DNA from: Marsupella aquatica
Lineage: Eukaryota; Plantae; Marchantiophyta
DNA length: 64,000 bases
NCBI GenBank assembly: GCA_973895155.1
Contig: OZ316894.1
Location: forward strand, 1,938,457 to 2,002,456
Direction: 5' to 3'
Shown here: positions 7,215 through 44,448 of the stretch, piece after piece
Layout of the letters: each line of letters opens with the position of its first letter
How positions within the stretch are numbered: position 1 is the stretch's first letter
Notes under the pieces: generated by a model
What the model saw: the letters and a program-made list of their open reading frames with translations, nothing else
Databases searched by the model: none
What the model was told of the DNA's origin: nothing
Program-made: the position numbers and the translations under genes

Positions 7215-8458
7215 TTCAGATGCATGTTTTGCCCTTTGCGAAAAAACGCATCTGCATGTTATTCTTGTCAACCACTTCTTGTAATGATTTCAAAATGTGA
7301 ACATGGAGCTGTAGGTTGTTCCTTGTAAGGTTACAATCACGCCAGTGATTTCTTTACCCGATGAAATGGTAGTAGTGGGCATGCAAAGGTAAGGTCCATT
7401 CTTAAACTGGATCTTCTAATTGTATTTCGCCGCATTAAGCAATTCATTGGCTTTGCCACTGGATTAGCAACGTTAGGAGGCACATGACTGTTGAAGCTGA
7501 AACGTGTGTTGGCTCTTTCTGTGAGCACATTGCAGAGTAATCAGACTTCTTCTTAGGCTTGCCCGTTCTCACTAAGGGGTATTCTCTGCTGTAACTGTAA
7601 GGATATATTAGAGAACATAGTGGTCTAAATTGAGCAAATGGTCCGAGTAAAATTTGGTAGTCCATCGAAGGATCCAAAGACGACGAGTAATGTTTGAGGC
7701 GAAAGAATCTGCAGTGTTCACATTGGGATTTGATCTACATTCAAAGATACTTGATGGATAGTTGATTTGAACATGCAACAGGTTGTTAGCGTAGTTTGCT
7801 ACCCACTATGGCAGTGTATGAAGGAGAATTGCATGGGATGACATAGGTTTAGATGTCTGGTGAAGATTAGATTGTAGGATAAGTAGTCTTCACTTGTGGT
7901 ATTAAATTTGACACTGTAGCTCGACCTGGAAAGCAATGCAGAGTAGGTAATATTGCTTCTCGTGCAGCGTGTGGAAAAACGGAAGGTCCACATTTTGTAT
8001 GAAGACTTCCAACAATAAAAACACGGAAGGTCTCTGTTATATTTTCACGAGTGTCTAAAGTATTCAAGAAAGTGATGTTCATGACTCAGGGAGATCATCA
8101 GAAAACAGCAATGAAAAGCTGTAGGTGATTCGCGTGCTATCACTTTTATATCTATGACTATGACTATGACCTTGTACTATGACTATGACCTTGTTCTCAA
8201 GCTCTAGACAGTACAGCGACGAATAATTTAGTCCCATTCATTATCCATCACAGTAGGTACTTGCTCAGGAGCCGTCTTCATACGGTTCGTTAGTACTTCG
8301 AAACCAATAGTGACCGTCACAGTCAGTTTCAGGAGCCCAATCAAAAAATCGAAGCTTAGTACCCATATCAGGTCACAATCATCAATTCATCGTCTATCAT
8401 CAGAAGGCCAAGCGCACAATCAGCAGACACTTTGGTGAAGAGGAGGATTACATAAAAT

Positions 8459-24709: not shown

Positions 24710-26323
24710 GTGTATGTCAAAACACCCATTCAAGGCCCCAATCAAGGTAGGGCTAATATATGATCCATACGAACCCTAGGCTCCACAGTGTAAGGGTAAT
24801 ATTGGGCGATACGCAGACATACACCCTGATCATTCACATACAGAGTTAAACCTGATCACAAATGCAGCTGGAGCGTTGGTTGGTTCTATGATGTCACACA
24901 TGCTATTTGTCTACATTGTTCACCTGACATGTTCAGTTGCCTACATGACAGAAGTAGAGTCCACTTTTGTTGGTGCAGAATCATTTAATTATTGTTTATT
25001 GAGTTGATACGGCAGCAGGTAAGTAATACTTTACATATCCATGACAAGACAAGGCATTGGGTCCACACATCCTTATTGACTTCTCATTTAAATAGTTTTG
25101 TATGTTGTGAGTCCTTGAATAGCGGATTGGAGTCCTTATCACACCACAACAGAAGTTTCTATTAGTCATTAGTACAGTAGCGCTACTTTAATCTATGCTA
25201 CGTTTATCAGAGCACATTTACATGGCTTAGATGTAAAATCAATGCGGTACATCAGCACTGTGATTCAAACAGCATGAAGTAGACCATTATCCAGGGCAAA
25301 AGTATGGTTGAAATCGGGCCATACTACATCCTCAAAGTCGTCATTCAGCCCCCATCCTTGAGGTGAATCATGTGCCTTAACACTGATTCCAGTTACATGT
25401 TTCTATTGCCATTAGCCGCGGCGGCAAAGGGGAGACATGCATTTATCCTGGGCTAGCATTGATCCAGACTAAAGCTAAGCATATAATGAGTTGAGAAAGG
25501 GAATCATTGGTGAAGAGTACATACCTGTGGAGCCCGTGCCATAGTGCTATGTTTTGTGACTGTTGGTGTAGTAGAAGGAGCGGTGTCACCCTCTCACTGA
25601 GCTTTGTGTGTGTACTTATCACCCTATTCATTAAAACTGGAATTTCTCTAGTCCAGAAGTTGACCTTCAAATTTCTTATTTTACCCCCAAAAGTTCTATA
25701 ACTTGTTCCCCAAAAGCATACATTTTAGTGGCCAAATATACACTTTTTGAGGTCTAAAATTACAATTCTAATGCCCAAATTATTAATTAAATAATTCAGT
25801 TATCAATTATTAATACTTATTAATTAAAAGACATTAAAGTGTTCTTATTATATACAATATAAACAATGAAAAAATAGAATAAGACAATATAATAAATTGA
25901 AATGACCATGATAACCAAGTTACACAAAGTAACACGGAAGGTAAACCGGTGATGTATTATAAAAGTAAAAAACCTATTTTTACAGGCTCGAGACCACGTC
26001 TGCCCCAATGCAGGCTCTAGATGGTTTTGACCGGTTGTTGAATGTATATCAATTACTATGTAAAAATCTATGTCAAGATTATCTCGACCCAAATGTAGGG
26101 TCCACATAATTTTGACCCGTTGTTGAATCTATATCTCTAGCTATTCCCTTTGTAGAGGGTCTAGACCCAAATAACCTTTTTCTGAGAACATATCTACAAG
26201 TAAATGAGGATCAACAGCATCTAGACTCAAATGGATACTACGCATAGCTTCACTCTTTTTTCGAGTAAGAATATGTATATGTACAACTCACATCGTAACT
26301 GTTCAGTGTAGGGTCGAGATAAT

Positions 26324-27598
26324 CTAGACCCAAATCTCATGCTCCTCCACCCCGCATAATTCATTTGAGCAAGTAAACCTAGACCCTGACGGGTCATATT
26401 TCATATCGCGATTACAGAAATTGAGAGGCTTTCTATTCCAGAACTTTGTTGTGAGGTCCCTACACCTCAAGACTTCCAAAACAAATCCCCGATGATTGTC
26501 TCTGTAGGGTCCTGTGTACTGATATCCAATTAATGTCTTTGCAAGGTCGTTGATCGCCTCCTCCGTCAATTTCTCCATTGGTGGTAATTGTTGCACTTCA
26601 TTTTTGATATCCCAGGGAATTTCGTCCGCTGTAACATCCAAGACTATATGGATAACATTGGGAACCCATACCATACTACCCCACCTCTCCGACAACAGAG
26701 CATAAATGGCAGCCTGTTGATCCCTGTCCGATAAAACATTGATCATAGACCACTTTGGATGATTGATAAAAAGATAGTGCTGAAGATTGAAGGCATGATA
26801 CAATTTCCTGAGCAGAGGCCACAGTATTTCTGGAAAGAATGTATCATCCGTGGAGTGATGCGAAAATGAGGAAGGAAACAACCCACAATTCTCTGGATTT
26901 GCAAACACCTTCATTGGAGTGTCATCAAGAAGGAGTGTATTAGTTTCGTTGTATAATCCACCATAACGTTTCCAAACAATCCTCAAATCCTTCAAAAGAA
27001 TATTTGCCTTCCCATCGGTAATGTCAGGCCTCTGGATTCCAGTATCAAATGTATCTTCTTGAGTGAGAATAAACTTGAATTGCTCTCTCTCTTCTTGATT
27101 GAAGATCAAATGAATCATTTCATCCGTCCTGGGTTTCCTTGCACAAGTCCAAATGGCAACATCAAATAATGAAAAAGCTGCGATTAAGAACTCGTGAAGA
27201 TGGGGTCGCTCAACATACATAAAGTTAAACCCTCCACGTCTCCCCCAGTGGACACCATTGACACTTGTCGCACTACGGCGCGGTCCGGAACTTGGCGTTT
27301 TGACAAAATCCCAGCACATTTTGTTGAGGTCAAGAATCAATAGCTTCCGTCTGATTGGACCGTGAAGTGGAGGCAAGGGTCCTGCAAAGTACGAACACCA
27401 ACGTTAGAATTGTGGGAGATAAAACAAAGGAATGCTCGAGACGATCTCGATCATCACAAGTGAATGAACAACAGTCAACATCATACCTGTTGTTTGTGGA
27501 AGGTCAGTAGTTGAAGAAATCTCAGGACATCTTCGGAGATTATTGTCGACGCACTCCACAATTGGTAAGGGCCCGCCTATTTCTGTGAAGGTAGACAT
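26324..27598 (-). CDS. Transposon-borne FCP1/SCP (NIF, HAD-superfamily) phosphatase-like protein; exons 27598-27487 and 27381-26324
   Basis: RRKLLILDLN, YVERPHLHEFL, FDVAIWTCA, KDLRIVW and NTLLLDDTPMK are NIF/FCP1-homology motifs. A 105-nt phase-1 GT-AG intron joins the two exons in frame. The start codon is uncertain. Confidence 0.75.
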
Positions 27599-27652
27599 AA
27601 TAATTTAGACGGCTGAATTTCAGGACAGTTCAAACTAACTTGGGTTTCAACC

Positions 27653-30600
27653 TCACGTGCTGAAAGACCCAAATTCATCTAGAAGGTTATCTCCTAGTTG
27701 GTTTTGGATGTCCAAATTTATCCCTCCGGGAAGGGTCTCAACAAGAGCTGGCTCAGACCAAACTGGCACTAATTTAAACTTATCCATCCTATACTTTCTA
27801 GATCGAATAATCTTCTCAGACTGCTCTATAGAGACTTGTTGACCTTTTGACGGTCCATCAGTCCAAACATAATGAGTAGCACTTGCTTTGAGTGATTTGT
27901 AACCAGTTCTACCGATTTCAGTCCCCGGTTTCCTAACAAAAGGGAGAATTACGGGGCTTCCAGTAGAAGAATCTGTGAAAACAAGCTTATTCTCTGAAGC
28001 GCAAAACATTTGGTCCAAGGGAGAGGACGATGCACCTGCCTCGTCCTGAGGGGGAGTATGGAAGCCACTAGCTTTCTTAGTAGAGAAAATCTCATCCAGT
28101 TGAGGAGGGCTTGGAATTGGTTGGCTAACTGCATCCTGCAGGGTGGATTCCCAGCCAACATCCAAGGTTGAAGACTGTTGTTCACGTTGTGCATCCCCAA
28201 GGCCACCCGATGAAGGAACACTTGGAACATCGAGATCATCTCGAGCATCATTTCCAAATTCAGGGAGTATTTCACCCTCCTCTTCCATGTAGCTTGTAAT
28301 TTTCGGGCCCTCCGTTTTGCGATGCTCTAAATTCTCCGCAAATACTTCCTCATAAACACTGGCTTCCACTGGAGCTATGTCTGCGGCCGCCTCTTCTATA
28401 AGAACGAGGGGACCAGCAGTAATTTCCTCAGATGGTAACGGCTCCTTGGGTGGCACATATAAAACTTGCTTGTTGTCATGAAGGAGCTGAGCAAAGGCTT
28501 CAGTGAATTCCATCTCTTGAGCTGTGTCCGAATACACAAAACAATCCCGACCAAGAATGACACAAGCTTTCAATGTCTGTCCTCCAGAGAAGAAATCCAA
28601 CACTGTATGACCTGGGCACGAGAAATAATCAACAAGACGCTTTGTCATTCGCAAAGGCTTTGCTCTCGGATTTACAAAGCCACCACGCCGACCGACCATC
28701 TCATAAGATGGGGCCATCTTCTCCAAAACTTCGACATCAACAGTGGATTCATCGAGCTTCTCTTTCCCCTTTGATTGGTCTTTGTTGTTCCCAGTAGGGG
28801 CCTTCAAAGGCAAGACTGTGAAGTCTTTGTCCCACTTCTCACTGTAGTTCCAGAACGCATAAAAGTCATCAAAGAAAATTTGGGACCAGTCTGGTTCCTC
28901 TTCACAACAAATTCCCCCAAAGATGATTGAGTCCCGAGCTCCAATGAGAAAATCTCCCTCCTCCTTGGGCACCTGATCACGGTAGTAGCTCCCGTACTCC
29001 AGCTTCATGTGCACTTTCTTCTCACGACGAATCTTTTCAAAGGCACTCTGAATCTGGCCTATCAATGGGCCTTGACGGACAAAAAAGATTACTAAGACCT
29101 CCTTCAAGTTCGCCATCTGCAAGCAATACTCCAGCAAGACAAAAATTTCGGCATCTGTCCACTGCCGTTGTCGAATACGACCAAAATTGACAATGGAGAG
29201 TGGACACGTCCTTTGCACCGAGTCAACAACCTCAGGCTTCATTGTCCTCATCAAATTATCGCTAAAAAATGTGCGATAAGGAGTATCCTCCATTGAAGGC
29301 AATCCGCCAAATACCTTGCAATATATCTGCTCAAGCCTCACAATGAGACTTTGCGGAAATGGGTCTTTTGGCCTATTTCTTTTTAGGAGGTTGGAAATCC
29401 AAACCTCTCCAGCAAGTTGTCTAAGTTTGGGCAACTCACCACGATCCATAAATGCAGGCAACAATTGAGTTAGCTCAAACCAAGTGAGTGAATTGGTAAA
29501 CCGATCCGAATACTTCAAAATGAAGTACTCCACAATTTTTACCCTCAGCTTGGTCATGACTTTGAAAGTATGAGCCATATCACTCATTGATTGAATATCA
29601 GATTTGTTGGCTTGGTCTTTCTTCAATAAAACCTTCTGTTGTTGAACGGCAGTAAAAACTTTCAGAATGTCGTCATTACTCAGGTCTCCTTCAAAGCATC
29701 TAAACAATGCCGGCGTAATCATTTTTGTTGTCCGGGCTTTCCCGTTTATTTTTGAACCTAACTCCCCTAGACCATCCGGAAGAAGTCCCTTGACCCAATC
29801 GATGCACATTTGTCTCCAAGTTCGGAAGAGGTTCTCATCCGAAAACAACAACCAAAAAATATTCCTCAGATCGGATTTTCCAGTCGTTATTTTGGCAAGG
29901 GCCATAAAATCCTGGTCCAAACAGTACAAAACAAATCTGAGGCTCGAGACGATCTCGAGGTAGAATTAAGGAACTATGATAAAATTTATGGGGAATACAT
30001 GAAGATAAATCAAATACAGAAACTTGACCTTGAGGCTCGAGACAATCTCGAGCTCGAAGTGGATTTGAGTTCAAATATACCTAGAACTTTTGATGATCCG
30101 TTAGTCTATTGGACCCAATCACGGGTCTCTCCGGACGGCCACACTCGTCAAACTGTCGACGCGCATGGACCATAGTATCAAGAAAACAGGACTCATACTC
30201 CATTGTCTTATTAACAGCATTTGCCCTTTGTGAGTGTTGAGCAAGTATTGTCCTTGGAGTTCTGTCCGAAAGAATTCGTGACTTTCGATATTGCAGACTC
30301 TTCGCGACCTCCTTCAACTTTGCATCGCTCTTAGCCCAACCTATGATCCAAACAGCTACTTTTGCCGAGTGTTGTCCACTGATTGCAAGGAACTGCACCT
30401 TCTTATTCTTAACACCCCACTCAAACTCCTTTCGATCCTCAGCAGTATTCTCATAATGGAGCAACTGCAAACTCTCTCTTGAATACGGAATTAAATCACC
30501 ACAGCTGGTACCATTCCAGGGTTTCTAACCATGGATTTTGCGACCTCCATGGCATGGTCTTTATTGAACATCCTATAAACCAAAACTGCAGATGGCGAAT

Positions 30601-32573
30601 CTATACTGGTGACAGGAATGTCAAAAGTTTCATTCATGCCAAATGTGTAATACTCCTCAATCTCCTTAAGAACTTCGGCTCCTTCCTTAACGCTCTTTTC
30701 TCCCGGAGCATCTCCTGGAGTGCCATCATCATCGGTATGTGCATTCACACCCGAGGAAGATGCCGGAATGAGATCTACCTTGGGCGATGCGGACTTTTTT
30801 GGCGGATGAGCCTTCTTCGATTTAATTTTGGGTTTGTCAACCCTCTTCCTCTTTTGAGACACCTTCGCTTCATTTTTGTCCGAACCGGAGGTCTTGTCTC
30901 TTGCAGCTACGGATTTTACTTTACCTGTTTGTCTCCGATGAGACAACACCCACTTTTTACAAGCATCCTGGTCAAATTCTCCTGCTCCGAACACAAAATC
31001 AGGGGATATAGATTCAAACTCCCCCAATTTGGATTCCAACATTAGTCTCAAAACCTTCCACGTGAAAGGAGTCGTGAATGCATCATCGCGATCAAGCCCA
31101 TACTTCCGACAATAAAGGAATCCAAAAATTATGTCCGCTCCAGATATAGGAGTATCTTCTAGCAAATTACTTGTAGTGAAACCCTCGGGGAAGAAACCCA
31201 TTGATATCACGCTCAGTTGTTTCCTGGCTGCACGTTCAATGTTAAGATCGCAAGAGTAGTTTTTGGCGTGAAGTCTAATTAGAGCCCACTTCCCTGTTTC
31301 GTGGTTCTCCACCGTCAAAACCATGTCCTTACCGTTACTCGTCACAATAGAAACAACAGGCCCTAGAAGGTTGCACACCAGAGGATCGATTGATGGAGAC
31401 CTCGTCTTCACACAAATAATAGTTCCTTCCATGTCTTCAGTTTCAGCAAGCTCAATGGCCCAACAGAATCCAAATAAACTCTGTCCAGGGCAGGAAATCT
31501 CAATTGCATGTTCATCTTCGACTACCAGATTAGGCGATCCCAATTTCGCACCTGTACAGCAAAAATGTAGCAATTGTCAGGAACATGTACTACAAAACCA
31601 AGAAACAAATAGGTGGCTCGAGATGATCTCGATCTTCAGTTTACTATTCAGACATGTTCCAATGCCATTTCATCCGTGGAATTTAAAAAGAGATTTCAAA
31701 CCCAAGAATCCCAGGAAACACAATAGGCTCGAGATGATCTCGAGCCACCATCTGTTTAAAAGAAAAAGATAAGGGCTCGAGATGATCTAGATCCACATAT
31801 ATATCAGTTGAGGCTTTATTCCAACTAGTCCAAAAGGCAAGCTTGGATCACATTGAAAAGGATATTAGTAATTGAAGTAGACAACAAGGAGTCCTTCCAA
31901 CTGGAAGAAATTGGCCAAGGGAGACGAATGAACATAAGGGAAGACGGTGTGGGATATATTCGGCTCGAGACGATCTCGAGCCTAACATATCAAATGAGTG
32001 ATCTGAATATCATATTCAACAATTAACATCATATTCAATCAACGATAAAAAATCCACTTTCTCCATTAACTTCGGATACCCACAAACCCGTTCGGATGTC
32101 AATGATCAGAACGAGTTGGAGGGCACAGAAGTCCCTGGAGGAAGGAAATTTTAGATATTTTGGATATGATGTTCAATTTTGAAGGGTAAGGGTTTCCAAC
32201 TTGAAGAAATCTCACTAGGTCACATGAAGGAATTGCATATTGGCTCGAGATGATCTCGAGCCTCATGCCACTTACATCAAATGCAAAATCAATTAATAGA
32301 TCACAACTTTTGAAACAAAGTATTGGAGAAAACATCAATAGGCTCGAGATCATCTCGAGCCTCAACGGCATCCAAGGAATCCAAAAACAAGTGGACCAAT
32401 TGAAGCTCGAGACGATCTCGAGTTAAACCTGAACAGAACAAAGATGAAGAATTACGTTTAATGGTGCGATGGATCTGATGTGCTGAGTCTAGATGGGTCT
32501 GGAGCTCTTTGCCAACGGTTGCAAGGTTGTACTCAGCGAAGTCCTCCTTGGAGAAATCTACAACAGTCGACAT
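27653..32573 (-). pseudogene. Transposon-borne spliced gene, ParB-like domain + beta-class N4C/N6A DNA methyltransferase-like domain; exons ~32573-32456, 31551-30081 (frameshift near 30500, TAG at 30083-30081), 29911-27653
   Basis: The splice junctions are in phase (AAA C|GT GCG and TTC TAG|gt...ag|GAT TTT). ParB-like segment: FDIPVTSID..YRMFNKDHAMEVAKSM..PAV-DLIP..FLAISGQHSAKVA. MTase-like segment: NPRAKPLRMTKRLVDYFSCPGHTVLDFFSGGQTLKACVILGRDC. One frameshift and one in-frame stop interrupt it. Confidence 0.65.
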
Positions 32574-33721
32574 GGCTGGTGATGAGAGGAACGTACTACG
32601 GGCTGAGAACTTAAAACAAATCTCGAGCCTAAAAAGAAAATCTCGACCCTATCAAAGCTCGAGCCTAAACACAAAATCTTGACCCTATAAAATCTCGAGG
32701 AAAAAACCTAATCTCGATCCTCTGCAATCTCAAGGCTAATAGAAGGATCTCGAGGCAAGAGCGCGAAACGATCTAGAGGCAAGGAGGCAAGGGACGCGAG
32801 GAGGCGAAGAGGCAAAGAGGCGAGGAGGCAAATGTGAAAATGGGGAGTTCAAAACCCCTGAAGCCACTATAAGCCCCTCGGGGGTCGGCCTTGGCCGTGC
32901 CAAGCGTGCCAGGGCTCGTGCAGGCTCAGGCAGGCTGCCACGCAACCTACTGAGTGCGTACAGTCATTATTACGGTCACACGTGTTGTCATTATTGTTAT
33001 CCGTACTTCAGCCCTGCCGCAAGTTTAGCCGTGACACAAGTTCAACCATTCCGTCTTATTGCCCTTTTTGTCTGTCAGGGTTTTATATATTGCTTCTCCT
33101 TGCTCTTCAGCGGGTCATTCTTCTCATTTCGTTTCACCGCTCGCTCGTTTCTTCCTCTGCCTCTCTGCTCTCTCTCCCTCTCCCTCTCCCTCTCTCTGGC
33201 TCTAGATTTGTGCTCTGATCTCTTTCTGTTGTTCTTTTCAAGGGTTTTGGAGTCTATGTTTGTGTTTAGGATATTTTGAGAAATTGTCATTTTAAGCCCC
33301 GAAGGAGGTCTAAAATAATTGAGCTCCTATCTTTTAGAAAACCGAACCTTTTCAGCTTATACTAATGTCGGTCAAAATCCATTTGGAAGCCTTTTCCCTC
33401 TATTTGATGGCCTTTTAGAAGCTTTTTCTCAGTGTCTGGAAGTAAACTGGGAGCCTACTTTCTTAATTGCACCAAATCATTCCTCTAGATCATCTAGAGC
33501 CATTTATATGTTCTTATTTTGGGTGGCTTATTATTCCTAATAGTTTCTTTGTCAAATACAATGTCCTTTTTGGCTCGAGATCATCTCGAGTCATAAGTTT
33601 GGTCCTCAAACTTATTCACTTTCCCCTTCTTTCTAATGGTGCATTTGGTTTTCCTTCTTATAATAAATGTTTTTAGAGTGTCGGAGGTATAGAATCTTAG
33701 TTCGATATTCAGTGAGATTCA

Positions 33722-33950
33722 TATTTTACCTCGAGATCGTCTCGAGCTAAATACTTCTGAATTTTTACATATTGGTGTTTTTGGTCCCTTTTCTACCTCG
33801 AGATCGTCTCGAGCTAAATACTTCTAAATTTTTACATATTGGTTGTTTTGGTCCCTCTTCTACCTCGAGATCGTCTCAAGCTAAATACTTCTGAATTTTG
33901 ACGTATTGGTGTTTTTGTCCCTCTTCTACCTCGAGATCGTCTCGAGGTAG
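33722..33950. repeat. 67-bp tandem repeat (~3.4 copies), each unit carrying the palindrome
   Basis: tacctcgagatcgtctcgagctaaatacttctgaatttttacatattggtgtttttggtccct repeats at a period of 67/67/66. Confidence 0.9.
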
Positions 33951-34078
33951 AAGAGCTTCTTATTTTCTCTATCACACAATTTTGTGGGATAAACTTCTAC
34001 ACTTGGGTTTTTGTAGTCACTTTACCTCGAGATCATCTCGAGGTAACTACATCCAACGGTTTGGGCCACATTTTCAAA

Positions 34079-37000
34079 ATGGGGAGTTTCTCTCGAGGGG
34101 ACAAGGTGTGCCTCGTAATCGACGGAGTGGAAGTTGCTTGTGGGACGGTCCTCAAGGTTGACCCGGGTGACTCAGTGCGTAATGTTGATTTGGGAAGTAA
34201 TCGTATAGGAGTTCTCATTGAGAAGTGCTATGAGGGATCACGGGAAATTCCTTACCCTTTGCCGCCGATCAGGACCCTGTTTGATGCTGTCGACTCTTGC
34301 ATTATTTGGGATGCCCCTTTTGCATATTTGAAGTCACAGTCAACTCCAGCGACAACGAAAATGGATGCCTCCTGTTCTACAAAGGATACGGTTCCGGGTT
34401 TTGTACCAGAGAAATCGTCGGTGGAAAGTTTTGGAGACTCGATTGTATCTGGCGATGAAGTCGAGGTCTGGATCGGCAATCAGATTGTGGCTCGTGGATT
34501 TGTGTTCAAGACGAATCCCAATGAGACATGTCACAATGAAAGACTTGGCACTTCTAGGATTAGTGTGAAAATATGTGAAGTTTTTCAAGGAAGGGAGAGG
34601 TTACCCTTTCCTCACAATGGAGCCGATACTGTTCAGGAAGCATTGGATACTTTTGTATTGTGGAATTTAAAGGATGTTACTCGGAGGAGTTCTTCCCGGG
34701 ATATGCTAAACAACCTGTCCAGACAGGATGTTTTTTCAAATTATAATTTCAAGGATTATAGTTTGCGTTCTAATTGGATGACCGAGGAGGTGGAATTGTA
34801 TGCTGAGGATAATCGGACCAAAGTGGGGGTTGGCATCATCACAGTTCCTTTCGAGTCAGGTGCAATTGATGATGATGTTCTTGGACCAGATCACGTTGGG
34901 GTTGCTGTCACACGCGTGATTGACCCTCTATTTTTCCCAAATATCTCCCCGGGAGTGCCTGGTCTTGTTAAGTGGGCCGTCCGTTCACTTTTGCTGATAT
35001 CAAGGGGTATTTTTCTTCTGGATCTCATTGAAGAGGTTTCTCCGAAACCAATTATTGATGGTCGAGATCATCTAGAGGTAGATATGAAAGGTGACACTGA
35101 GTTTTTGAAGCGCCCGTATAATTTCATCAAGAGAACAAAGGTCAACCCAGATGAAAAAAGGAAGAAGCACTTGGAGTCTCGGGCGATACTGAAAATCACA
35201 GAGGAGGAAATCGACTCCATCCAAAGAGAAGGTTGTTGTAAGTTGAAGTGTTGCCTCAGCATGCCGAGAGAAGACCTACAGGAGATAAGGAGGGAATACC
35301 ATGGGATGTCAAGCGACAACAAAACCAGTCACATTCTCACTCTTTTTGGCTGTAGGGAGAAGGAAGTGGAGACAAAAGGATATTTTGTTGTAAGAAGTAG
35401 ACTTGTTTGCAAGGGTGCATTTATTAAAATGCATGGATTCAGCACTGCCAAGTATTATGATTACAAAAATCAATATGAAGCAGGTTGCACGGTTGGATTC
35501 CACGGAAACAAGGGTTCACACAAGACACGGGGAAGCACCTTGCATGCTCGTGCTTTGTTGGAGTCCATTCTAACCCAAAACGGAGAACCCATGCCGCATC
35601 TTCCCTATGGAGGGTCTCACGGGACTGACACGGTTGAGTACAGACTTCCATCTTGTTTCACGAAGAAAGAGATTTTTGAGGAGGTATACTCAAAAATGGA
35701 ATTAGATGGCTACGTGAAGGTGAGTGAAAACACTATGTATAAACTCTGGAGTGAGTCCTTCATGAATTTTGACTTTCACAAGGGAAGTGCATTTGCAAAG
35801 TGTACACTTTGCACTGAGTTCAAAGATCAGTTGATGCGGGAGAAGAGAAAGAAAGAGCGTTTAGAGATTGAGGAAAGAAGAGCTCGCCATCTTCGTGAGC
35901 AAATGTCTAGGAGATATGTTTACTATGCTCATAGGGTTCTTGCGAAGAAGGATCCTGAGAACTATCTTTGCATTATACATGACAAGATGGACCAGGCCAA
36001 GACATGGATCCCTAGGTTGGTCCCCACTCCTAAATCATTGTCTGGTAGTGGTCAACCGCTCCCCATTGCGCTCACTGGGATGTTGACCCATGGAAGGGAT
36101 CCCGGAGTGTATGCTCACTTCAGTTTTACTGGGCTTTGGCCAGGAGATGCAGACTTCACAGTGACATCATTGGCCAAGTGCCTTAGAGATCTGGAGGATT
36201 ACAAGGGGGACAAATCTGGAGACCTCCTTGAAGGATTATATTGGGCTGCAACGAGGCCAATTTTTCAATCTCTTTTGGACTTTGAAGCATTTCTCGCAGG
36301 TTACTTAGAACCCAAAAAAGTCTCAATTGCTAGATTTCAAGGAGCTGAAGATGACCAAGACGACTTTGGTGTTGATCCCAAGGCTACGTCTACCTCTTTC
36401 AAACCATTGCCAAGGCACCTGACCTTGCAAATGGATAATTCAGGGAAAGATAACAAAAACCAGTACGTGATGGCATTTTGCAGTGAGCTTGTTAGTAGAG
36501 GGGTTTTTGAAACAGTGCAGATGTCGTTTCTCATGGTTGGTCACACCCATGAGGATGTCGATGCATTGTTTTCAAAAGTATCCAACCAAGTGAAGTACAA
36601 GGAGGTTTCTACCCTCTTGGGGTTGATGGCTGAGGTTTGGGAGTGTGAAAGCATTCATCCTGTGCCACGGTTGATCCAAGAGGTTGCAGCTTACAAAGAG
36701 TTTTTGAAAACTTTCAAGGTAAAAGACATAGAGGGTCACTCAAAACCAGTGGCATTTCTTTTCTCTATGAGAGATAATGTTCCAATATATCAATACAAAG
36801 CACATGTGAAACAACCTTGGTACCCTCCAACCGGAAGGTCCATTTGGAGAACTGATTCCAGCACCAATGCTCTCATTTTACCAGAAGGTCAACCGTTTGC
36901 AAAACCCATCTCCGGGGATGTACGAGGCAAGGTTGAAGAAATCATCCCATTCCTTAATCGTTACATTGAGTTTTTGAAGAAGAGCTGTAAGGATGAGACC

Positions 37001-37768
37001 TCTACAGCATATCGTGAGCGGTTTCCTTTGGTGAAATATTGGGAGATGGTGGTGCAAGTATTATCTGGGGAGCTTACAATTGAAGGGGAGGCAGAAATAC
37101 AGTTAGCATTGACATATGAATTCTGGCCAAAAACCAACCACGGAACTGGTTACAAGGTTAATAGTACAGGAACCTCTGAACCATTGGGGGAGCCTAGTAG
37201 TAGTACACAGAATCCACAAATGGTGGAGCTTCAGAATGAGTACCTGGAAGAGATGGAGGATCAAGCTGCAACATTTGTTGGTGCTCGACACGAGCGAGAA
37301 CTTGCACGTTGGATTCCTCTGCAGGACATTCAAGAGGGTCACTTTGTATTTCTCCGTCCAGAGGATGAATGGGAAAAGAAGAATGGGAAAGAACGTTTCT
37401 GGTTGGTGAGAGCTTTGGGTGTTGTGGACCCAAACCATGAGGTTCCTTCAGAAGACTTGCAATGCAATGAGAATTCTCCTACTAGTACACGGTATGCTCC
37501 TATGTTCCAAGTGCAATGGTGGAGGCCTAAACATGGTAAGCATGATGCACCGGATCATGTGCGATATTCACGTTGCTTTCAGACCACTAAGACTTGGGAG
37601 GTGGATCCTGGGTTTGACAATGCCACTGAACGTTGGCAATTTGCTAATTCTGCTATGTATGGATTCAAGTCACGCTCTAGAGAAGAAAATATAATTGATA
37701 GAGGTTTGACCATTCCCAAGAATGTTTTGAAAACACTCAAAACCTACATGGAAGGGATTGTTGAGTAA
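34079..37768 (+). CDS. Sola-like DDD transposase (~1230 aa) with three N-terminal Tnp1/En-Spm-like repeats and a C-terminal BAH/Tudor-like segment
   Basis: Uninterrupted ORF inside the TIRs. Cys motifs GCCKLKCC, VCKGAFIKMHGFS and KCTLC. Putative catalytic motifs IIHDKMDQAK, LTLQMDNSGKDNKNQY and FLMVGHTHEDVDALFS match the DNxxxxNKN...GH pattern I associate with Sola1-type RNase-H-fold transposases. Confidence 0.8.
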   Translation: MGSFSRGDKVCLVIDGVEVACGTVLKVDPGDSVRNVDLGSNRIGVLIEKCYEGSREIPYPLPPIRTLFDAVDSCIIWDAPFAYLKSQSTPATTKMDASCSTKDTVPGFVPEKSSVESFGDSIVSGDEVEVWIGNQIVARGFVFKTNPNETCHNERLGTSRISVKICEVFQGRERLPFPHNGADTVQEALDTFVLWNLKDVTRRSSSRDMLNNLSRQDVFSNYNFKDYSLRSNWMTEEVELYAEDNRTKVGVGIITVPFESGAIDDDVLGPDHVGVAVTRVIDPLFFPNISPGVPGLVKWAVRSLLLISRGIFLLDLIEEVSPKPIIDGRDHLEVDMKGDTEFLKRPYNFIKRTKVNPDEKRKKHLESRAILKITEEEIDSIQREGCCKLKCCLSMPREDLQEIRREYHGMSSDNKTSHILTLFGCREKEVETKGYFVVRSRLVCKGAFIKMHGFSTAKYYDYKNQYEAGCTVGFHGNKGSHKTRGSTLHARALLESILTQNGEPMPHLPYGGSHGTDTVEYRLPSCFTKKEIFEEVYSKMELDGYVKVSENTMYKLWSESFMNFDFHKGSAFAKCTLCTEFKDQLMREKRKKERLEIEERRARHLREQMSRRYVYYAHRVLAKKDPENYLCIIHDKMDQAKTWIPRLVPTPKSLSGSGQPLPIALTGMLTHGRDPGVYAHFSFTGLWPGDADFTVTSLAKCLRDLEDYKGDKSGDLLEGLYWAATRPIFQSLLDFEAFLAGYLEPKKVSIARFQGAEDDQDDFGVDPKATSTSFKPLPRHLTLQMDNSGKDNKNQYVMAFCSELVSRGVFETVQMSFLMVGHTHEDVDALFSKVSNQVKYKEVSTLLGLMAEVWECESIHPVPRLIQEVAAYKEFLKTFKVKDIEGHSKPVAFLFSMRDNVPIYQYKAHVKQPWYPPTGRSIWRTDSSTNALILPEGQPFAKPISGDVRGKVEEIIPFLNRYIEFLKKSCKDETSTAYRERFPLVKYWEMVVQVLSGELTIEGEAEIQLALTYEFWPKTNHGTGYKVNSTGTSEPLGEPSSSTQNPQMVELQNEYLEEMEDQAATFVGARHERELARWIPLQDIQEGHFVFLRPEDEWEKKNGKERFWLVRALGVVDPNHEVPSEDLQCNENSPTSTRYAPMFQVQWWRPKHGKHDAPDHVRYSRCFQTTKTWEVDPGFDNATERWQFANSAMYGFKSRSREENIIDRGLTIPKNVLKTLKTYMEGIVE

Positions 37769-38212
37769 GTCAAATGTTTTTTAGTAGTCACTCTGTCAGA
37801 GTGAGGGAGTCTAGTATGTCAATTAGTTTGGAATTAGACATGTCAGAGTGAGGGAGTCTATGTCAATTAGTTTGGAATCAGACATGTCTTTAGTACTTAC
37901 TGAGTGTTGGTTAGTACTAAGTACTAGTATATCTATTTAAGGAACTAATTATTATAATATTTTGGGATACTAGTTTGAATAGGTGGAGGTAATTGGACTT
38001 GGATACCTTTATAATTGCTTCAATTAATTATTATATCAATACAGACTATATATTACATGAAGTCTTAATATCCATGATAGGATGTGAGTGCCTCTTAGTA
38101 CTGTCTAGTAAACCTTAGTTTCAACTCGAGTTGCTTAGAATGTACTAACAAATTACTTGTCTGAATGGATATTTAAACTAAACCCTAAGTAGAAGGTTAA
38201 TTTAGCTAGCTA

Positions 38213-38316
38213 AGGGTAGAGATCATATTGAAGCTTTACTAGTTATATGGGTAGAGATCATATTATTTGAAGCTTTACTAGTTATATGGGTAGAGATCAT
38301 ATTGAAGCTTTACTAG
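38213..38316. repeat. 35-40 bp tandem repeat x3 in the transposon 3' region
   Basis: gggtagagatcatattgaagctttactag(ttatat) is repeated. Confidence 0.8.
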
Positions 38317-38882
38317 ACACTTATATTCTATTAGTCAAATTGAATCAATGTAAGTAAATTCTACTTCTTATCCAACATATTTTACATTATTATCACCCAA
38401 ATGTTTTTCTTTAGAATCCAAATTAATATTTCATTTTCTCCTATGTACAATCTTGATCCCCCAAATGTACAACATCTGGTGCCCAAATGTACAACTCCCA
38501 CTGCCCAAATGTACAATTCTTGTGCCCAAATATTTTTTTTTGTGCCTAAATGTCCAAAGATCAAAGAATTTTCCAGTTTTAATGAATAGACTGATACTTT
38601 GACTGATATTGTGCGGTCCCGCCACAGCACTTGACAGAAAGCAGTGTCCCACGAAGTCGAGTAGCATGTGAAGGGTGAATATAGTGCCAGACTATGGAGA
38701 GGGTGGTAGCATAATGAGATCAAGAGCCAGAGCTGAAGCGGGAGAATAGTGGAGGCAAAAGATCCTCTAGTAGAGACAGAGTGTACAAGTGTGGAGCACA
38801 ACATATAGGCTGGTACTAGGGAGACTAAAAAAGCGCTACTTTTTTAGGGTAGCCGTCAGAATGGTGGCTGTTTGTTAGGTTA

Positions 38883-40576: not shown

Positions 40577-40684
40577 GGGGGGACTACAATGACGGAGTTG
40601 ATCGATTGATAAGCGAGAAGCTCAAGAAGTGTTGTCGGTTCGCTTCCTATAGTCGGAGCGGGGGAATTCGAGTTGATTCGAATC

Positions 40685-43600
40685 ATGGCGGATGTGGATG
40701 TTGAGGTGGCGTTGATGACGTTCCAGTCGCAGGAGTACGCAAGGGCGTCGATGATGTACTCGGACCTGGAGCTCGCCTGCCAACTCCAGCTCAACGAGGC
40801 CCTCGCTGCCTCGGCCGCCATGAGCAATGAGGCGGGAGCAGTGCGTCCAGAACAATCGGCAAAATTGGCGATTAATGCGAGAGGACCGGCGGCTGGAAGA
40901 GGAGGAGGAAGAGGAGGGGACACAGGAGCGGGAGACAAAGCAATTGCGTGTGCGGTACAGAGTCGCGAGCTGCGGAGACGACAGCAGGAGCTGCTCGACC
41001 AGCAGAAGGCCGTGAAAGCTGGGCGGGATGTGACGGTGGAGATGCAGCGGAGATGGCACGATAGGGAGTTCTCGAAGATGATTTCGGAAATGCCGGAGGC
41101 CGAGTGGGAAAGTGATGGAGACAATTTCGAGAAACCTTTCCTGCCTGGCACCTCGTCAAGTGTTGCTTGCGAAGACGGAGCACAGGAGGGAAATTCTGCA
41201 GAACAGGAATGTATTCTGTACTTCGCCAAGGCTAGGGAGGATCCAGGGTATGTGGGAATGGCATGGGCCGTGACGGACGCCTCGACGGGCCAAGTTCTGT
41301 TCCAGCAGAGCAAGTTTCTAGGGCTCAACGTGAGTGCCTATTCGGCTGACTACACGGCTCTGATCAATGGCCTGTCCTACGCCCGCTCTGCAGGGGTGCG
41401 GAACATTGTGGCTCATGGCGATTCGGCTCTTGTTGCCAATCAGGTATTCAATTGCACTAAAGTTATCCATAGCTGGACACATTTGCGAATTTGATGAATT
41501 GGAAAAGCATAGCCGTTGCTCTTATTATTACTGATGGTGGCGGCAAGTGTGACTATTTCTTCAACTCCCTTGTATGAAATGTTGAGAATTTGTCATAATT
41601 TGATCGTGTTTGGACTCCAAAGGTGTTCAGATGTACTGCAACATATTAGGAGGATAACTTGTAATCAAAATTTGTAGAGAGCTGGAGCTTCGGTCGGGTT
41701 GAACAACATTTAGCGCTCTGAACCCTAATTTCCTAAAGCGTGATGTAAAGCAATCAAAGTCTGCAAAGTACTACCGTTATAATTTTAAGATTTTCTTTGA
41801 TACTTCAATTTGAGGGCTGGATCTCCGCTGTATTCGTACTCTCCTGATTGGTTATGGTAGAGTACCTGTCCCCAAATTAATTAGCAGGGGAAAATTGCAT
41901 TTCCAGGTAGTGCAAGAGAATTCGTTTTGGCCCATTGTAGAACTCGCTGTGGACAAGTAAAATGTATGCGTCGCGTTTTATTCGTTTTTTCGCTTTCTGT
42001 ACATGCTTGTAATCTCCTCCAACTCAAAGCAGAACTTCAGCATACAGTAAGGAATTAGGGACATTTGTCAACAGTGTTCAAAATGGTAGAGCTATTTGTC
42101 CAACCCTTTTGACTCTAGGCCAAAATCTAGATGAGCTCGGCAACACGATTCCTCAGGAAAGTTCTGTTGGGGTAGAACCAAGCAAGACCAGGGTTGCAAT
42201 CTGTTTACCGGCTTATTTACTTTCTGTGTCAACGGAGCTTTTTCTTTAGGCCAGAGTCCACGTCCATGTCGTTCTAGTCAATCATTGCTACTTATATCGC
42301 AATCATTGCTACTTTCTGTCAACCAGGGAATGTTGTACAGTGTAGAACTTTTGTAATTTTCTTTGTCGATAGTTACATTTAGTGACGGGGTCCACTAGCT
42401 TTACCCTGGAGCAATTTGCCAATAAGACGTTACTCCGGATGACCTCCTCCATTGCAATGTTGGTTTAGTCATATGAATTTCGTACTTGGAAGAATTTGGT
42501 TTTGAGCACGGCTCCAAAATCCAAGTCTTATGAGAAATCGCCGCAAATGGAAAATGCGTGGATTTCAACACTGGTTAAAATCCTTCATTATATCATTATG
42601 AAAAGTTGGGTTTTGAGGACTGCACAATTATCGCGAATTTTCCACATTCACGCGACTAGTTATTTCAATAAATTCCAATAAAAAACATTTCTCCCTGCAG
42701 TGGCAGAACTCTCGTAGGTTTTTGTTTGGGATCAAATCTGCCCTTGGTGATTCTTTAGCTGTGATATATGGATGCAGCAGATTTGAAAGACCTAGTTTGG
42801 GGACTTGCTCATAGTCATACTTACTTCGTGTGCTTATGGTTTACTTCTTGCATCAGGTCAGAGGACAGTGGAGGGCACGTTCCCAGCCGCAAGTCAAATT
42901 TTTGGAAGAGGTGAAAGAGTATGAAAAGGAACTGCTGGATGGGTTTACCGTTCTTCATGTTCCAAATGACAAGAATCAGTATGCTATAACCCTGGCGAGG
43001 CAGGCTATTCAAGGACATCTGGAAAAACTCAGAAAAAATGGTCAACAGATCCCCGTACAAGCCAAGGACGAGGACATTAGCGAGGATTGTCCCATTTGCT
43101 TTGAGAGAACGCCTGTTGATGAAATGTTTAGTGCAAGGAGTTGCTCCCACAGATTCTGCCGGAATTGCTTGTCCCAGCACGTAGAGGTCCAGGTCAAGGA
43201 GAATCTGGTGCCAGTTCGCTGCCCTATGGAATGCTCCAACCATCTGGAGCTTGATCAATGTCAGCCATATCTTCCTCTCAACGTTGTAGATGCATTTGCA
43301 AGGCGTTTAACAGAGGCCAGTATACCCGAGGCAGATAGAGTTTACTGTCCATTCAAAAATTGCTCCGCCTTGATGTCGAAAGGTGGACTGAATCTGTCGA
43401 GCGCGGGAAGCTCGTCTGGTCATCCATCGATTGGCCGTTGTGAGTGTATGGTGTGTCACCGGCTCTTTTGCGTTGAATGTCAGGTTCCTTGGCATGTAGA
43501 CCTGTCCTGCGCCAAATTTCAGAAACTTCCACCTGATGAAAGGGATCCACAAGACGTAAAGCTACATCAACTAGCAAGGAACCAGAATTGGCAGCGTTGC

Positions 43601-44448
43601 AAGAAATGCAAGCACCTCATTGAGCTGAATACAGGCTGCTACCACATGACTTGCAAGTAAGTTCTTCAGTTGTTTGTTGCTCCATGAGTAAGTTTAAAAT
43701 AAATGCAACTGTTGGCGACACGTCGACCTTACGTTTGGGTGTGGCTGTGTTTTTCTAAAAGAAAAGGCTTTCATGATCATTGAGCCTTACAAAAAGCTTC
43801 CTCAGTTTCATGCGGACTCGTTGTTTTCTGCTCTTTGTCTCTCTCTTGTGTACCCAGGGTTAATCCGCCAGCCTGGGGAGCGTCAGATATCTTTTGTTTC
43901 CGGTCAAGATTTTCCTCTCTTGAAGTGTGAAAATTTTCAGTGCTTTCTGGCATTGTTGGTGATGTAGGTTAATTATATGTTTTATGCGTCTTTAGTTCCG
44001 TCTACAACTTTCTTTCTTTGAGCCATGTTGGGCGTGAGTTTCACGCACTTGTGCAGCAGGGCGGAAGCACAAGTTGTATACATGCAATTGCCGACTGTGG
44101 GAGGAGAAAACGTCGTTGAGGATGCTTACATGTGTTTTGCATTGTTTGTACAGGTGTGGACATGAATTTTGCTACACTTGTGGAGCAGAGTGGAAAGACA
44201 AACACGCGACTTGCAAATGCAAACTATGGGATGAAAACAACATCATTGGGGACGATGATGTGGATTCTGACGACGACGAAAGTGAACCTGAATATGAGTC
44301 CGAACCTGAGGACTTCAATACTGCCTACAACTATTACAAGACTCAGATATGTAAGCACTGGCGCAATGGTAACTGTTGGTCTGGTGACGCCTGTAATTTT
44401 GCACATGGACAAGGTGAGCTGCGGCGAGTGGAGTACCGCCATTTTTGA
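40685..44448 (+). CDS. RBR-type (RING1-IBR-RING2) E3 ubiquitin ligase, RSL1/RFA-like, with an RNase H-like domain and a C-terminal CCCH zinc finger; exons 40685-41443, 42857-43656, 44154-44448
   Basis: [15 protein letters not shown]-terminus; RNase-H-like [20 protein letters not shown]; RING1 [15 protein letters not shown]; [25 protein letters not shown]; RING2 CKKC..GCYHMTC|[11 protein letters not shown]; [25 protein letters not shown]. Splice phases are consistent. Confidence 0.9.

Follow-up and report, generated by a model that had tools for sequence, protein, structure and literature searches.

A lineage-specific palindrome array in a DUF7869-type DNA transposon as putative sites for an element-encoded dimeric protein

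About twenty copies of a palindrome of 17-21 bases are clustered around the two-way promoter and in the predicted introns of a cut-and-paste transposon in the window, the 64-kb stretch of DNA that we analysed. We propose, at a probability of about one half, that they form a lineage-specific array of putative sites for a DNA-binding protein that the transposon itself encodes and that would act as a dimer, and that binding would serve self-recognition and regulation of the element's own copies. This reading is favoured by the element specificity and density of the motif, by its constancy within unrelated flanks, by the arrays of relatives and also by the growth of motif units as tandem repeats.

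Structure of the transposon

Contigs from runs X1, X2 and X3 fuse position 25613 to position 38600 with four other letters between them, which sets the limits of the transposon. The 4-bp target-site duplication presumably fits the length of Sola duplications. The element has two divergent genes, one for a DUF7869 transposase and an accessory one (methylase-like and NIF phosphatase), and its family is abundant (1017 to 7570 contigs in runs X1, X2 and X3; 328 in X5). Introns were predicted from the ORFs together with GT/AG dinucleotides.

25614..25617, left target-site duplication ACTT (right copy 38596-38599), 4 bp, read from the sequence
25618..38595, whole transposon, 12,978 bp, cut-and-paste
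25618..25642, + strand, left terminal inverted repeat, 25 bp, from the inverted pair and the sequence
26324..27403, - strand, last accessory ORF, NIF/FCP1-like phosphatase (Pfam PF03031, E 7.6e-16)
27653..29965, - strand, large accessory ORF, methylase-like; motif I present, motif IV absent
30081..31576 (30491-31576 and 30081-30524), - strand, accessory front ORFs, including the proposed ParB-like region
32456..32573, - strand, predicted first exon of the accessory gene (ATG 32573-32571, GT donor 32455-32454)
34079..37768, + strand, transposase gene, 1229 aa, open; DUF7869 core (Pfam PF25273, E 7e-44)
38571..38595, - strand, right terminal inverted repeat, 25 bp, differing from the left one at 2 positions

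The palindrome array

The motif CTCGAGA-N3-TCTCGAG was searched for as CTCGAGANNNTCTCGAG in the 64-kb window, with shuffled sequence as background. We found 12 exact matches (100 shuffles: mean 0, largest 0). With up to two mismatches there were 19 matches, all in 27435-35077, where the shuffles gave a mean of 0.21 and at most 2. The array of about 20 copies reported by the first-pass annotation is therefore real, and its statement that no full copy lies elsewhere in the 64 kb also held, all of these matches being inside the element. Allowing three mismatches gave 25 matches (shuffles: mean 2.0), 23 of them within the element and two off it, at 11569 and 41115. The density of CTCGAG was 2.77 per kb in the element vs 0.25 per kb in the window outside it. 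The individual copies are as follows.

26072..26088, degenerate copy, 3 mismatches
26313..26329, degenerate copy, 3 mismatches, outer pair altered on both sides; first copy of the first-pass annotation
27435..27451, 1 mismatch, between the NIF and methylase-like ORFs
28229..28245, 1 mismatch, in coding sequence (ARDDL), opposite orientation
29943..29959, exact, predicted intron between the next accessory ORFs
30036..30052, exact, predicted intron between the same ORFs
31617..31633, 1 mismatch, predicted intron 1
31728..31744, exact, predicted intron 1
31776..31792, 2 mismatches, predicted intron 1
31964..31980, exact, predicted intron 1
32244..32260, exact, predicted intron 1
32343..32359, exact, predicted intron 1, opposite orientation
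32406..32422, exact, predicted intron 1
32617..32739, 36-bp tandem repeat of 3.4 units, directly upstream of the accessory ATG
33483..33499, symmetric change in both arms, upstream of the transposase ATG
33574..33590, exact, upstream of the transposase ATG
33727..33946, 67-bp tandem repeat of 3.3 units, holding copies 33730, 33797, 33864 (1 mismatch) and 33930
34026..34042, exact, 37 bp before the transposase ATG
35061..35077, 2 mismatches, in coding sequence (GRDHLE), hypervariable transposase linker

The distribution was as previously described, with 1, 2 and 7 copies in predicted introns (the seven of intron 1 at 31617-32406), seven from the promoter to the transposase start at 34079 (33483-34026) and two in coding sequence. 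The divergent promoter region was densest (14 copies in 2426 bp, or 5.8 per kb). Half sites ATCTCGAG occur in the 36-bp tandem repeat at 32620 and 32692, with a third just past it at 32747, and copy 33930 is the centre of a 35-bp palindrome. Motif copies are absent from the first 450 bp at the left end of the element and from the last 3.5 kb at its right end, where other repeats are found. In bins 32329-32360, which comprise one copy and a short flank, X2 and X4 contigs were roughly tenfold deeper than in most adjacent bins, which places the motif in many contexts besides that intron.

The spacer is 3 nt in every copy; read along the sense strand of the gene to which the copy belongs, it is T[C/T]R in 18 of 20 copies, the exceptions being 28229 and 32343. 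This bears out the earlier description of a fixed spacer whose orientation follows transcription; 15 of the 17 independent copies share their orientation relative to transcription (p 0.002). The symmetric alteration of both arms of copy 33483, also described before, was found again. Complementary double changes occur in two copies vs 0.1 expected, and two or more extra complementary pairs past the core were seen in 9 of 20 copies. At unpaired positions of degenerate copies, G-U wobbles were found 0 times in 9 on the sense strand. In a 211-bp stretch covered by contigs, the three motif cores contained none of the 6 variant positions, a non-significant result (0.76^6 = 0.19).

Four of the seven upstream copies are members of the 67-bp tandem repeat. 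Among the 17 non-tandem copies (136 pairs), motif identity was 0.874, and the ungapped identity of their flanks was 0.311 vs 0.285 at random positions. Tandem duplication alone is thus insufficient to explain the array, in agreement with the first-pass annotation.

Candidate binding proteins

There are two candidate binders: the front part of the accessory protein, for which a ParB-like nature has been proposed, and the helical middle of the transposase. The reading frame of the former is broken at the overlap of the two front ORFs, compared with the intact relatives P0205 and P0206. Pfam gave no match at E up to 10 for the ParB-like region, either in the window ORFs or in P0205 and P0206; a PDB sequence search of the region returned no ParB, and in the Atlas it had no named-cluster match, a search by features leading to DUF3723-like clusters only. 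The ParB-like identity assigned earlier to this part was therefore not confirmed.

The methylase-like domain matches PF01555 at 27.4 bits (cut-off 26.7), at profile positions 160-207 of 221 alone, that is, the C-terminal part. It retains motif I (DFFSG); the catalytic motif (D/N/S)PP(Y/F/W) was not found in the window protein, in any of 10 aligned relatives or in 108 of 109 hits. Because this motif is missing, the idea that CTCGAG or TCGA are targets of methylation, also put forward in the first-pass annotation, is weakened.

The predicted fold of the transposase comprises three N-terminal beta-barrels, a helical middle part and the DUF7869 core. The SH3-like barrels are predicted to resemble the KOW, Agenet and Spindlin readers rather than a domain for sequence-specific DNA binding, and the predicted middle part gave middling winged-helix matches (Z 6-7). 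The Pfam match to TNP1/EnSpm is weak, being seen in 2 of 21 members with a best E of 0.023.

Arrays in metagenomic relatives

The motif of the window was found in 0 of 80 metagenome loci with DUF7869 relatives. However, 5 of the 80 loci carry a palindrome family of their own with four or more copies, vs 0 of 80 shuffled loci. These are L001, L017 and L018-L020, the last three being one element in three records. Arrays of longer or imperfect inverted repeats occur in L003, L024 and L002. The transposase N-terminus was matched by tblastn in six loci (L001, L002, L003, L005, L006 and L024), and the array lies upstream of the transposase in all four of these with 500 bp or more of upstream sequence; L005 and L006 have just 26 and 216 bp. 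Half sites resembling AGCTAGATTTCC are common to L003 and L024, and none are shared among distant relatives. Arm length ranges from 7 to 16 nt across lineages. The centre of the L003 palindrome is CACGTG, which we take to resemble a G-box.

In L018 the layout is that of the window, with a NIF-like ORF on the minus strand followed by the array and the transposase; further palindrome copies lie near both ends of the element. By eye, a 'cag' resembling a 3' splice site directly precedes the ATG in L001, L003 and L024, whose arrays may thus be in a 5'UTR intron. No methylase-like or ParB-like gene was detected in the sequenced DNA around the relatives' arrays, so the binder could equally be the transposase.

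Alternative readings of the array

A symmetric dimer leaves the shared orientation unexplained, and the palindromy past the core and the two complementary double changes fit a constraint on hairpins at least as well. In an unlikely but serious alternative, the palindromes are hairpins in pre-mRNA or in single-stranded DNA exposed by transcription, not double-stranded protein sites, and would label the element's own transcripts or control them, for instance through splicing of the 5' leader and the long introns or by attracting an RNA-binding factor. Besides orientation and symmetry, this alternative draws on the location of every non-coding copy in a predicted intron or upstream of the ATG, on the possible 5'UTR introns of the relatives, on arms that vary by lineage and on a stable fold for each copy tested, which is trivially true of palindromes. 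The lack of G-U wobbles argues against it, as do stems of 7-10 bp, short compared with known RNA-processing signals, the two copies in opposite orientation and the L018 copies near the element ends. We consider it distinctly unlikely that the array is a functionless by-product, in which hairpin-prone palindromes would have spread and been homogenized by replication slippage, unequal exchange and gene conversion in a young high-copy family. Four copies are indeed plain tandem duplicates, the family is abundant, and the symmetric changes fit correction within a palindrome. Moreover, contigs from other copies of the family connect flanks of different motif copies, for instance the left flank of copy 31617 with copy 32244 and, after copy 32343, the right flank of copy 31728, and motif copies therefore take part in rearrangements. 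Yet 12 copies are perfect while the flanks of the 17 are no closer than random, several distant lineages independently retain differing arrays at the same place, and two in-frame copies are tolerated within coding linkers.

Sites for a host transcription factor, making the array a transposon-borne enhancer, are very unlikely. The arrays are located at promoters and L003 has its CACGTG centre, but the lineages lack a common core, sites of 17 to 32 bp exceed typical host factor sites, and the window copies extend through 6 kb of accessory introns and into coding sequence. The least probable reading is that the accessory methylase domain modifies CTCGAG, TCGA or GATC and so marks the element as self, an idea in print for algal accessory proteins (PMC12477816). 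Each copy does offer two CTCGAG, two TCGA and one off-centre GATC, and the accessory ORF aligns to the C-terminal part of the PF01555 profile. Against this stand the short extent of that match, the missing catalytic motif, which leaves motif I alone, and the array-bearing relatives, which have unrelated palindromes and no methylase-like ORF found in their sequenced DNA.

Comparison with known systems and implications

In bacterial ParB-parS systems, clustered palindromes of about 16 bp lie beside the ParB gene. The window likewise has clustered palindromes of about this size adjoining the gene of the proposed binder; here, however, the ParB domain is putative, the sites are in eukaryotic introns and their orientation is linked to transcription.

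PAG3, a fusion of a ParB-like part and a 2OG oxygenase, is found in red-algal Plavaka transposons and adjoins tandem arrays of inverted repeats; according to the authors' proposal, the protein binds the element that encodes it and modifies it (bioRxiv 10.1101/2025.02.11.637652). The window shares the giant DNA transposon, the accessory protein with a reported ParB-like front part and the inverted-repeat arrays adjoining its gene, and differs in superfamily, in the oxygenase fusion and in the red-algal host. The design of ParB plus inverted repeats is thus already published for algal transposons, and with it the idea of self-recognition through ParB and palindromes given in the first-pass annotation. 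Like the element of the window, Sola1-1_Ec32 of Ectocarpus is a giant DNA transposon whose accessory gene and transposase gene run on opposite strands; its accessory gene encodes a ParB-like part and an N4/N6 DNA methyltransferase (PMC12477816). Palindromes are not mentioned in the text of that paper ('palindrom' occurs 0 times). The element of the window differs further in that its methylase-like domain is without the catalytic motif, in the NIF phosphatase domain that comes after it and in its bryophyte-like host.

In Arabidopsis VANDAL21, VANC21 binds arrays of YAGTATTAY, with binding and loss of methylation shown by experiment, and the target units grow as tandem repeats (PMC5735166). The array of the window is similar in that a short family-specific motif occurs at high density in non-coding DNA (accessory introns and upstream of the transposase), in a single orientation, with tandem growth of units and with differing motifs in related families. 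In contrast, the VANC21 motif belongs to a Mutator-like element and is non-palindromic, with 9 nt; here a DUF7869-type element carries a palindrome of 17-21 bp, coding sequence holds some of the copies, a protein resembling VANC is absent, and the system is known from sequence alone. The Spm/CACTA TnpA and the AtMu1 transposase are sequence-specific regulators, and TnpA targets are marked by clusters of 4 motifs per kb (bioRxiv 10.64898/2026.08.24.746577), a density exceeded by the promoter region of the window. As here, dense family-specific clusters (4 or more per kb) mark cognate TnpA copies and the motifs diversify with lineages; a transposase acting as regulator also fits the relatives' arrays in which no methylase-like ORF was detected. 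The TnpA clusters differ in lying at element termini, which are motif-free in the window, and the TNP1/EnSpm match here is weak.

The self-recognition proposal of the first-pass annotation thus survives in its VANC-like pattern of a dense, element-confined array with differing palindromes in relatives, whereas the ParB identity was not confirmed and the idea of modification targets is weakened. A binder that is encoded by the element, is sequence-specific and probably acts as a dimer would be expected to give just this pattern, a dense motif confined to the element and differing palindromes at the equivalent place in relatives. Such a protein would dock on the palindromes as a dimer, and its binding may keep the two-way promoter active or shielded from silencing, in the manner of VANC and TnpA in elements of Arabidopsis.

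The palindromes lie within a cut-and-paste transposon

In contigs of three sequencing runs, position 25613 was joined directly to position 38600, with four other letters between them. The DNA in between has 25-bp inverted ends with ACTT on either side, a 4-bp target-site duplication, and the empty-site contig has 4 letters at this place. From the empty-site contigs, the inverted ends and the flanking ACTT, we conclude that the CTCGAGA-N3-TCTCGAG palindromes are situated inside a transposon of the cut-and-paste kind that has duplicated 4 bp of its target. A duplication of this length is what Bao et al. reportedly described for Sola1 elements in 2009. The parts of the element are:

25618–38595: transposon, 12,978 bp
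25618–25642 and 38571–38595: inverted ends
27435–35077: palindromes with up to two mismatches
27653–29965, minus strand: methylase-like ORF of the accessory gene
30491–30524, minus strand: overlap, in different frames, of the accessory gene's two front ORFs
34079–37768, plus strand: transposase gene
34079–35098, plus strand: predicted barrels of the transposase

The transposase and accessory genes diverge from one 1.5-kb region. The element family is abundant (1017 to 7570 contigs in three runs, 328 in one further run) and ranges over mosses, liverworts and, from protein matches, animals. To the right of the element, two plus-strand ORFs at 40613–41494 (293 aa) and 42815–43660 (281 aa) resemble pieces of a single host gene; judged by eye, the second has many Cys/His patterns of the RING-between-RING type.

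We considered the palindromes as subterminal transposase-binding sites and rejected this, since the left-most copy (26072) is degenerate and lies 455 bp in, and the last is 3.5 kb from the right end. The ends of the element have other repeats, of the GCCCAAAT / ATTTGGGC type, and these are more likely than the palindromes to be the end-binding sites of the transposase. Such short repeats were seen at 25618–25900 (GCCCAAAT...) and at 38300–38595 (TGTACATTTGGGCA units, period ~22 bp).

Palindrome copies are dense, confined within the window to the element and mostly set in unrelated flanks

The window holds 12 exact copies of the palindrome, and no shuffle contained any. At up to two mismatches there were 19 copies (shuffle mean 0.21), none of them in the part of the window outside the element. 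At up to three mismatches we found 25 matches, 23 of them inside the element (shuffle mean 2.0); this set takes in the copy at 26313 listed in the first-pass annotation as well as the one at 26072. Locally the density reaches 14 copies in 2426 bp. Copies occur in all predicted introns and in the region upstream of the transposase ATG, and the distribution originally described was reproduced: 1, 2 and 7 copies in the three gaps between minus-strand ORFs, 7 from the promoter region to the transposase ATG, and 2 in coding sequence. Clustered palindromic sites of the ~16-bp class adjoin the accessory gene, as in ParB-parS systems.

A 67-bp tandem repeat supplies four of the seven copies upstream of the transposase ATG. 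The remaining 17 copies in the element bear out the earlier statement that flanks are mostly unrelated: flank identity was 0.311, against 0.285 at random positions, and identity within the motif was 0.874. The full length of many copies is 21 bp (GG...CC), at least two extra complementary pairs are present in 9 of 20 copies, and the copy at 33930 forms the middle of a palindrome of 35 bp. Comparison of contigs gave 6 variant positions in 211 bp, too few for a conservation test.

Some contigs connect the flanks of different palindrome copies, which shows that the copies are also involved in rearrangements. At 32225–32435, contigs assembled from four runs (X1–X4) end at palindrome copies, and some connect the flank of one copy to that of another. 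Such joins suggest that other members of the family have undergone deletions or reshuffling between copies. The transposase frame is open for 59 codons upstream of its ATG (33902–34078) and passes through two copies, translated as PRDRLEV and PRDHLEV; GRDHLEV at 35061 is read in this frame too. There may be an upstream coding exon here.

Several distant relatives carry arrays of other motifs

By scanning metagenome contigs we obtained 80 loci with distant relatives of the DUF7869 transposase. The window's palindrome was found in none of the 80. Several of the loci carry palindromes of their own at the equivalent place; in a qualitative sense, related elements have different motifs. Locus L001 has ~10 copies of TTGGCCATATGGCCAA with a period of ~142 bp, an array that stops 270 bp short of the ATG, and L017 has 8 copies of CCACGGGTG-AA-CACCCGTGG upstream and at least 2 downstream. 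In L003 the palindromes are centred on CACGTG and are 24–32 bp long; L024 and L002 have related half sites, and the arrays of these three loci were identified by visual inspection and word counts. More than 30 TGGTGGCCACCA units lie between a NIF-like ORF and the transposase in L018–20, with a few near both candidate ends. A script that searched for palindrome families of at least four copies recovered one in 5 of 80 loci and in 0 of 80 shuffled loci. The N-terminus of the transposase was matched in six loci, and an array was located upstream in all four of those with at least 500 bp of upstream sequence.

The 11.3-kb stretch L018:1205–12485 is a candidate for a complete relative; its inverted ends are 36 nt long and match at 92%. 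Within it lie several minus-strand NIF-like ORF fragments, a central array of more than 30 TGGTGGCCACCA units and a decayed transposase.

We also searched the loci for the accessory gene. With the ParB-like and methylase-like ORFs as tblastn queries, the 80 loci gave no hit up to E 1e-3; relaxing the threshold to E 5 added only short matches at chance level and weak NIF hits in L018–20 and L069. An HMM of the methylase-like family matched the window alone when run against the 80 loci and the window. Among 59 upstream ORFs of L003, L018 and L069, Pfam detected NIF in L018, a retroelement domain in L003 and nothing else. A methylase-like or ParB-like ORF was thus not detectable in the 80 loci, with the restriction that the ParB-like part is too divergent for its absence to be firm, because Pfam misses the window's own copy too.

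The accessory protein joins a methylase-like part to a phosphatase-like domain

The accessory gene comprises several minus-strand ORFs with a front part, a methylase-like part and a NIF/FCP1-like phosphatase domain. The methylase-like ORF scored 27.4 bits against PF01555 (cut-off 26.7), placing a methylase-like gene on the strand opposite to the transposase; the alignment is confined to the C-terminal part of the profile (positions 160–207 of 221). A word-index search with this ORF gave no match within its length limits, and an HMMER search of a representative library gave 109 hits. One relative, P0187, also has a C-terminal NIF domain.

The SAM-binding motif I (FxGxG) is present as DFFSG at residue 457 of the window's protein (P0089) and in 9 of 10 aligned relatives, P0094 having a variant. 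The catalytic motif IV, (D/N/S)PP(Y/F/W), is missing from P0089, from all 10 aligned relatives and from 108 of the 109 hits. The lone hit with motif IV, P0188, is a true multi-methylase. On these sequence motifs, we predict that the methylase-like domain is inactive or non-canonical.

For the front part, neither the window's ORFs nor the intact relatives P0205 and P0206 had a Pfam match at E up to 10, and phmmer against the PDB returned no ParB. It includes a stretch, AISGQHSA, with a putative resemblance to the ParB box. At 30081–30524 the sole PDB match was the CTD-interacting domain (CID) of RPRD1B (E 0.085, far from significant); a domain of this type would go well with the CTD-phosphatase-like NIF domain at the protein's opposite end. 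The Atlas feature search found DUF3723-like clusters alone for the front part (0.95–0.96), and the clusters nearest to P0205 residues 300–510 by these language-model features are fungal. Fungal Starship elements carry DUF3723 as an accessory gene. P0205 (68% identical) and P0206 (64%) read straight through the site at which the window's front ORFs shift frame; therefore, the accessory gene of the window is broken once.

The transposase begins with three predicted barrels

The transposase gene is open, encodes 1229 aa and has a DUF7869 core (Pfam, E 7e-44). Its nearest named relatives are from the liverwort Riccia sorocarpa, mosses and one sea anemone. For the first 340 residues, the predicted fold is three all-beta barrels in tandem, ~85 aa each (pLDDT 83.7), and the top structural matches were Spt5 KOW repeats, Agenet H3K9me readers and Spindlin. 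As modelled, this shape is chromatin- or polymerase-facing, with no obvious sequence reader, and the barrels may be a chromatin- or polymerase-targeting module. Of 21 members of the transposase family, 2 matched PF03017 (TNP1/EnSpm) weakly, with E 0.023 at best; the window's N-terminus scored E 0.052.

Residues 330–640 are predicted to be helical (pLDDT 83.8). With this middle part, Foldseek gave no match at E up to 0.001 and VIA-align returned middling winged-helix-like rows alone (Z 6–7); in a search for superfamily assignment, a transposase profile had no match among PDB sequences. Between the barrels and the helical part runs a hypervariable linker, and it contains the coding palindrome at 35061.

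Possible functions of the array

We predict that the array consists of binding sites for a dimeric protein encoded by the element, and we give this reading a probability of about 0.5. The candidate binders are the accessory protein, by its front part, and the transposase. The signature comprises a dense motif confined to the element, perfect within unrelated flanks and growing in tandem, with other palindromes in other lineages. Binding sites are favoured because this signature matches that of the targets of VANC, TnpA and the AtMu1 transposase. In VANDAL21, the motifs recognized by VANC likewise occupy introns of accessory genes and the region ahead of the transposase gene (PMC5735166). The parallel with VANC drawn in the first-pass annotation agrees with this at the level of analogy. 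This signature is also reported for the targets of TnpA and of the AtMu1 transposase (10.64898/2026.08.24.746577).

The proposal that CTCGAG and TCGA are methylation sites has lost ground: the absence of the catalytic tetrapeptide from 108 of 109 family hits weakens CTCGAG, TCGA and GATC alike as methylation targets. Two observations speak against a simple symmetric dimer and fit a constraint to form hairpins. Fifteen of the 17 independent copies share a direction relative to transcription (p 0.002) and two complementary double changes were seen where 0.1 were expected, as such a constraint would have it. Against a hairpin in RNA, 0 of 9 unpaired positions are G-U wobbles on the sense strand. 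A bolder version, which we regard as improbable, has the palindromes read in an orientation-dependent manner during transcription, as hairpins of nascent RNA or of the displaced strand. They would recruit an element-encoded module directed at RNA polymerase II, by which the element would control how its own transcription unit is elongated and silenced; in that module, the accessory protein would supply its NIF/FCP1-like phosphatase and the transposase its Spt5-KOW-like barrels. Between these, binding of the array by a dimeric element protein is the reading that we prefer.

Relation to earlier work and significance

Elements of similar design have been described in algae. The Ectocarpus mobilome study reports a Sola1 element with a ParB-like and methylase gene on the opposite strand, and suggests that the element is bound and modified by the protein it encodes there (PMC12477816). 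In Bostrychia, inverted-repeat tandem arrays are reported to adjoin ParB-domain accessory genes of Plavaka elements (10.1101/2025.02.11.637652). The self-recognition idea of the first-pass annotation is already in print for algae. A preprint on the N4-methylases of Marchantia does not mention ParB, and does not link the enzymes to a transposon, in the passages available. Our literature searches returned no paper on DUF7869, and none on transposon-borne FCP1-type phosphatase domains of this kind.

The general design, a ParB-like accessory protein with inverted-repeat arrays, has therefore been proposed before, and what is gained here is extension and detail, not principle. New are a bryophyte-like member described in exact anatomical detail, the finding that the motif extends through all predicted introns and into coding linkers, and the orientation bias of the copies. 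Also new are the missing catalytic motif of the methylase-like domain, the NIF fusion, whose layout a distant relative shares, and the arrays in relatives that have no visible methylase-like gene.

If proteins of the element bind the palindromes, this would be a second independent case of a transposon recognizing its own copies by fast-evolving motif arrays, and it would stand outside the Mutator and CACTA elements of flowering plants. Because the family spans several groups and its arrays differ between lineages, it offers a natural series in which to follow the joint change of a DNA-binding protein and its sites. It also raises the question of what use a transposon has for a phosphatase of the polymerase-CTD type and for a methylase-like domain that lacks the catalytic motif.
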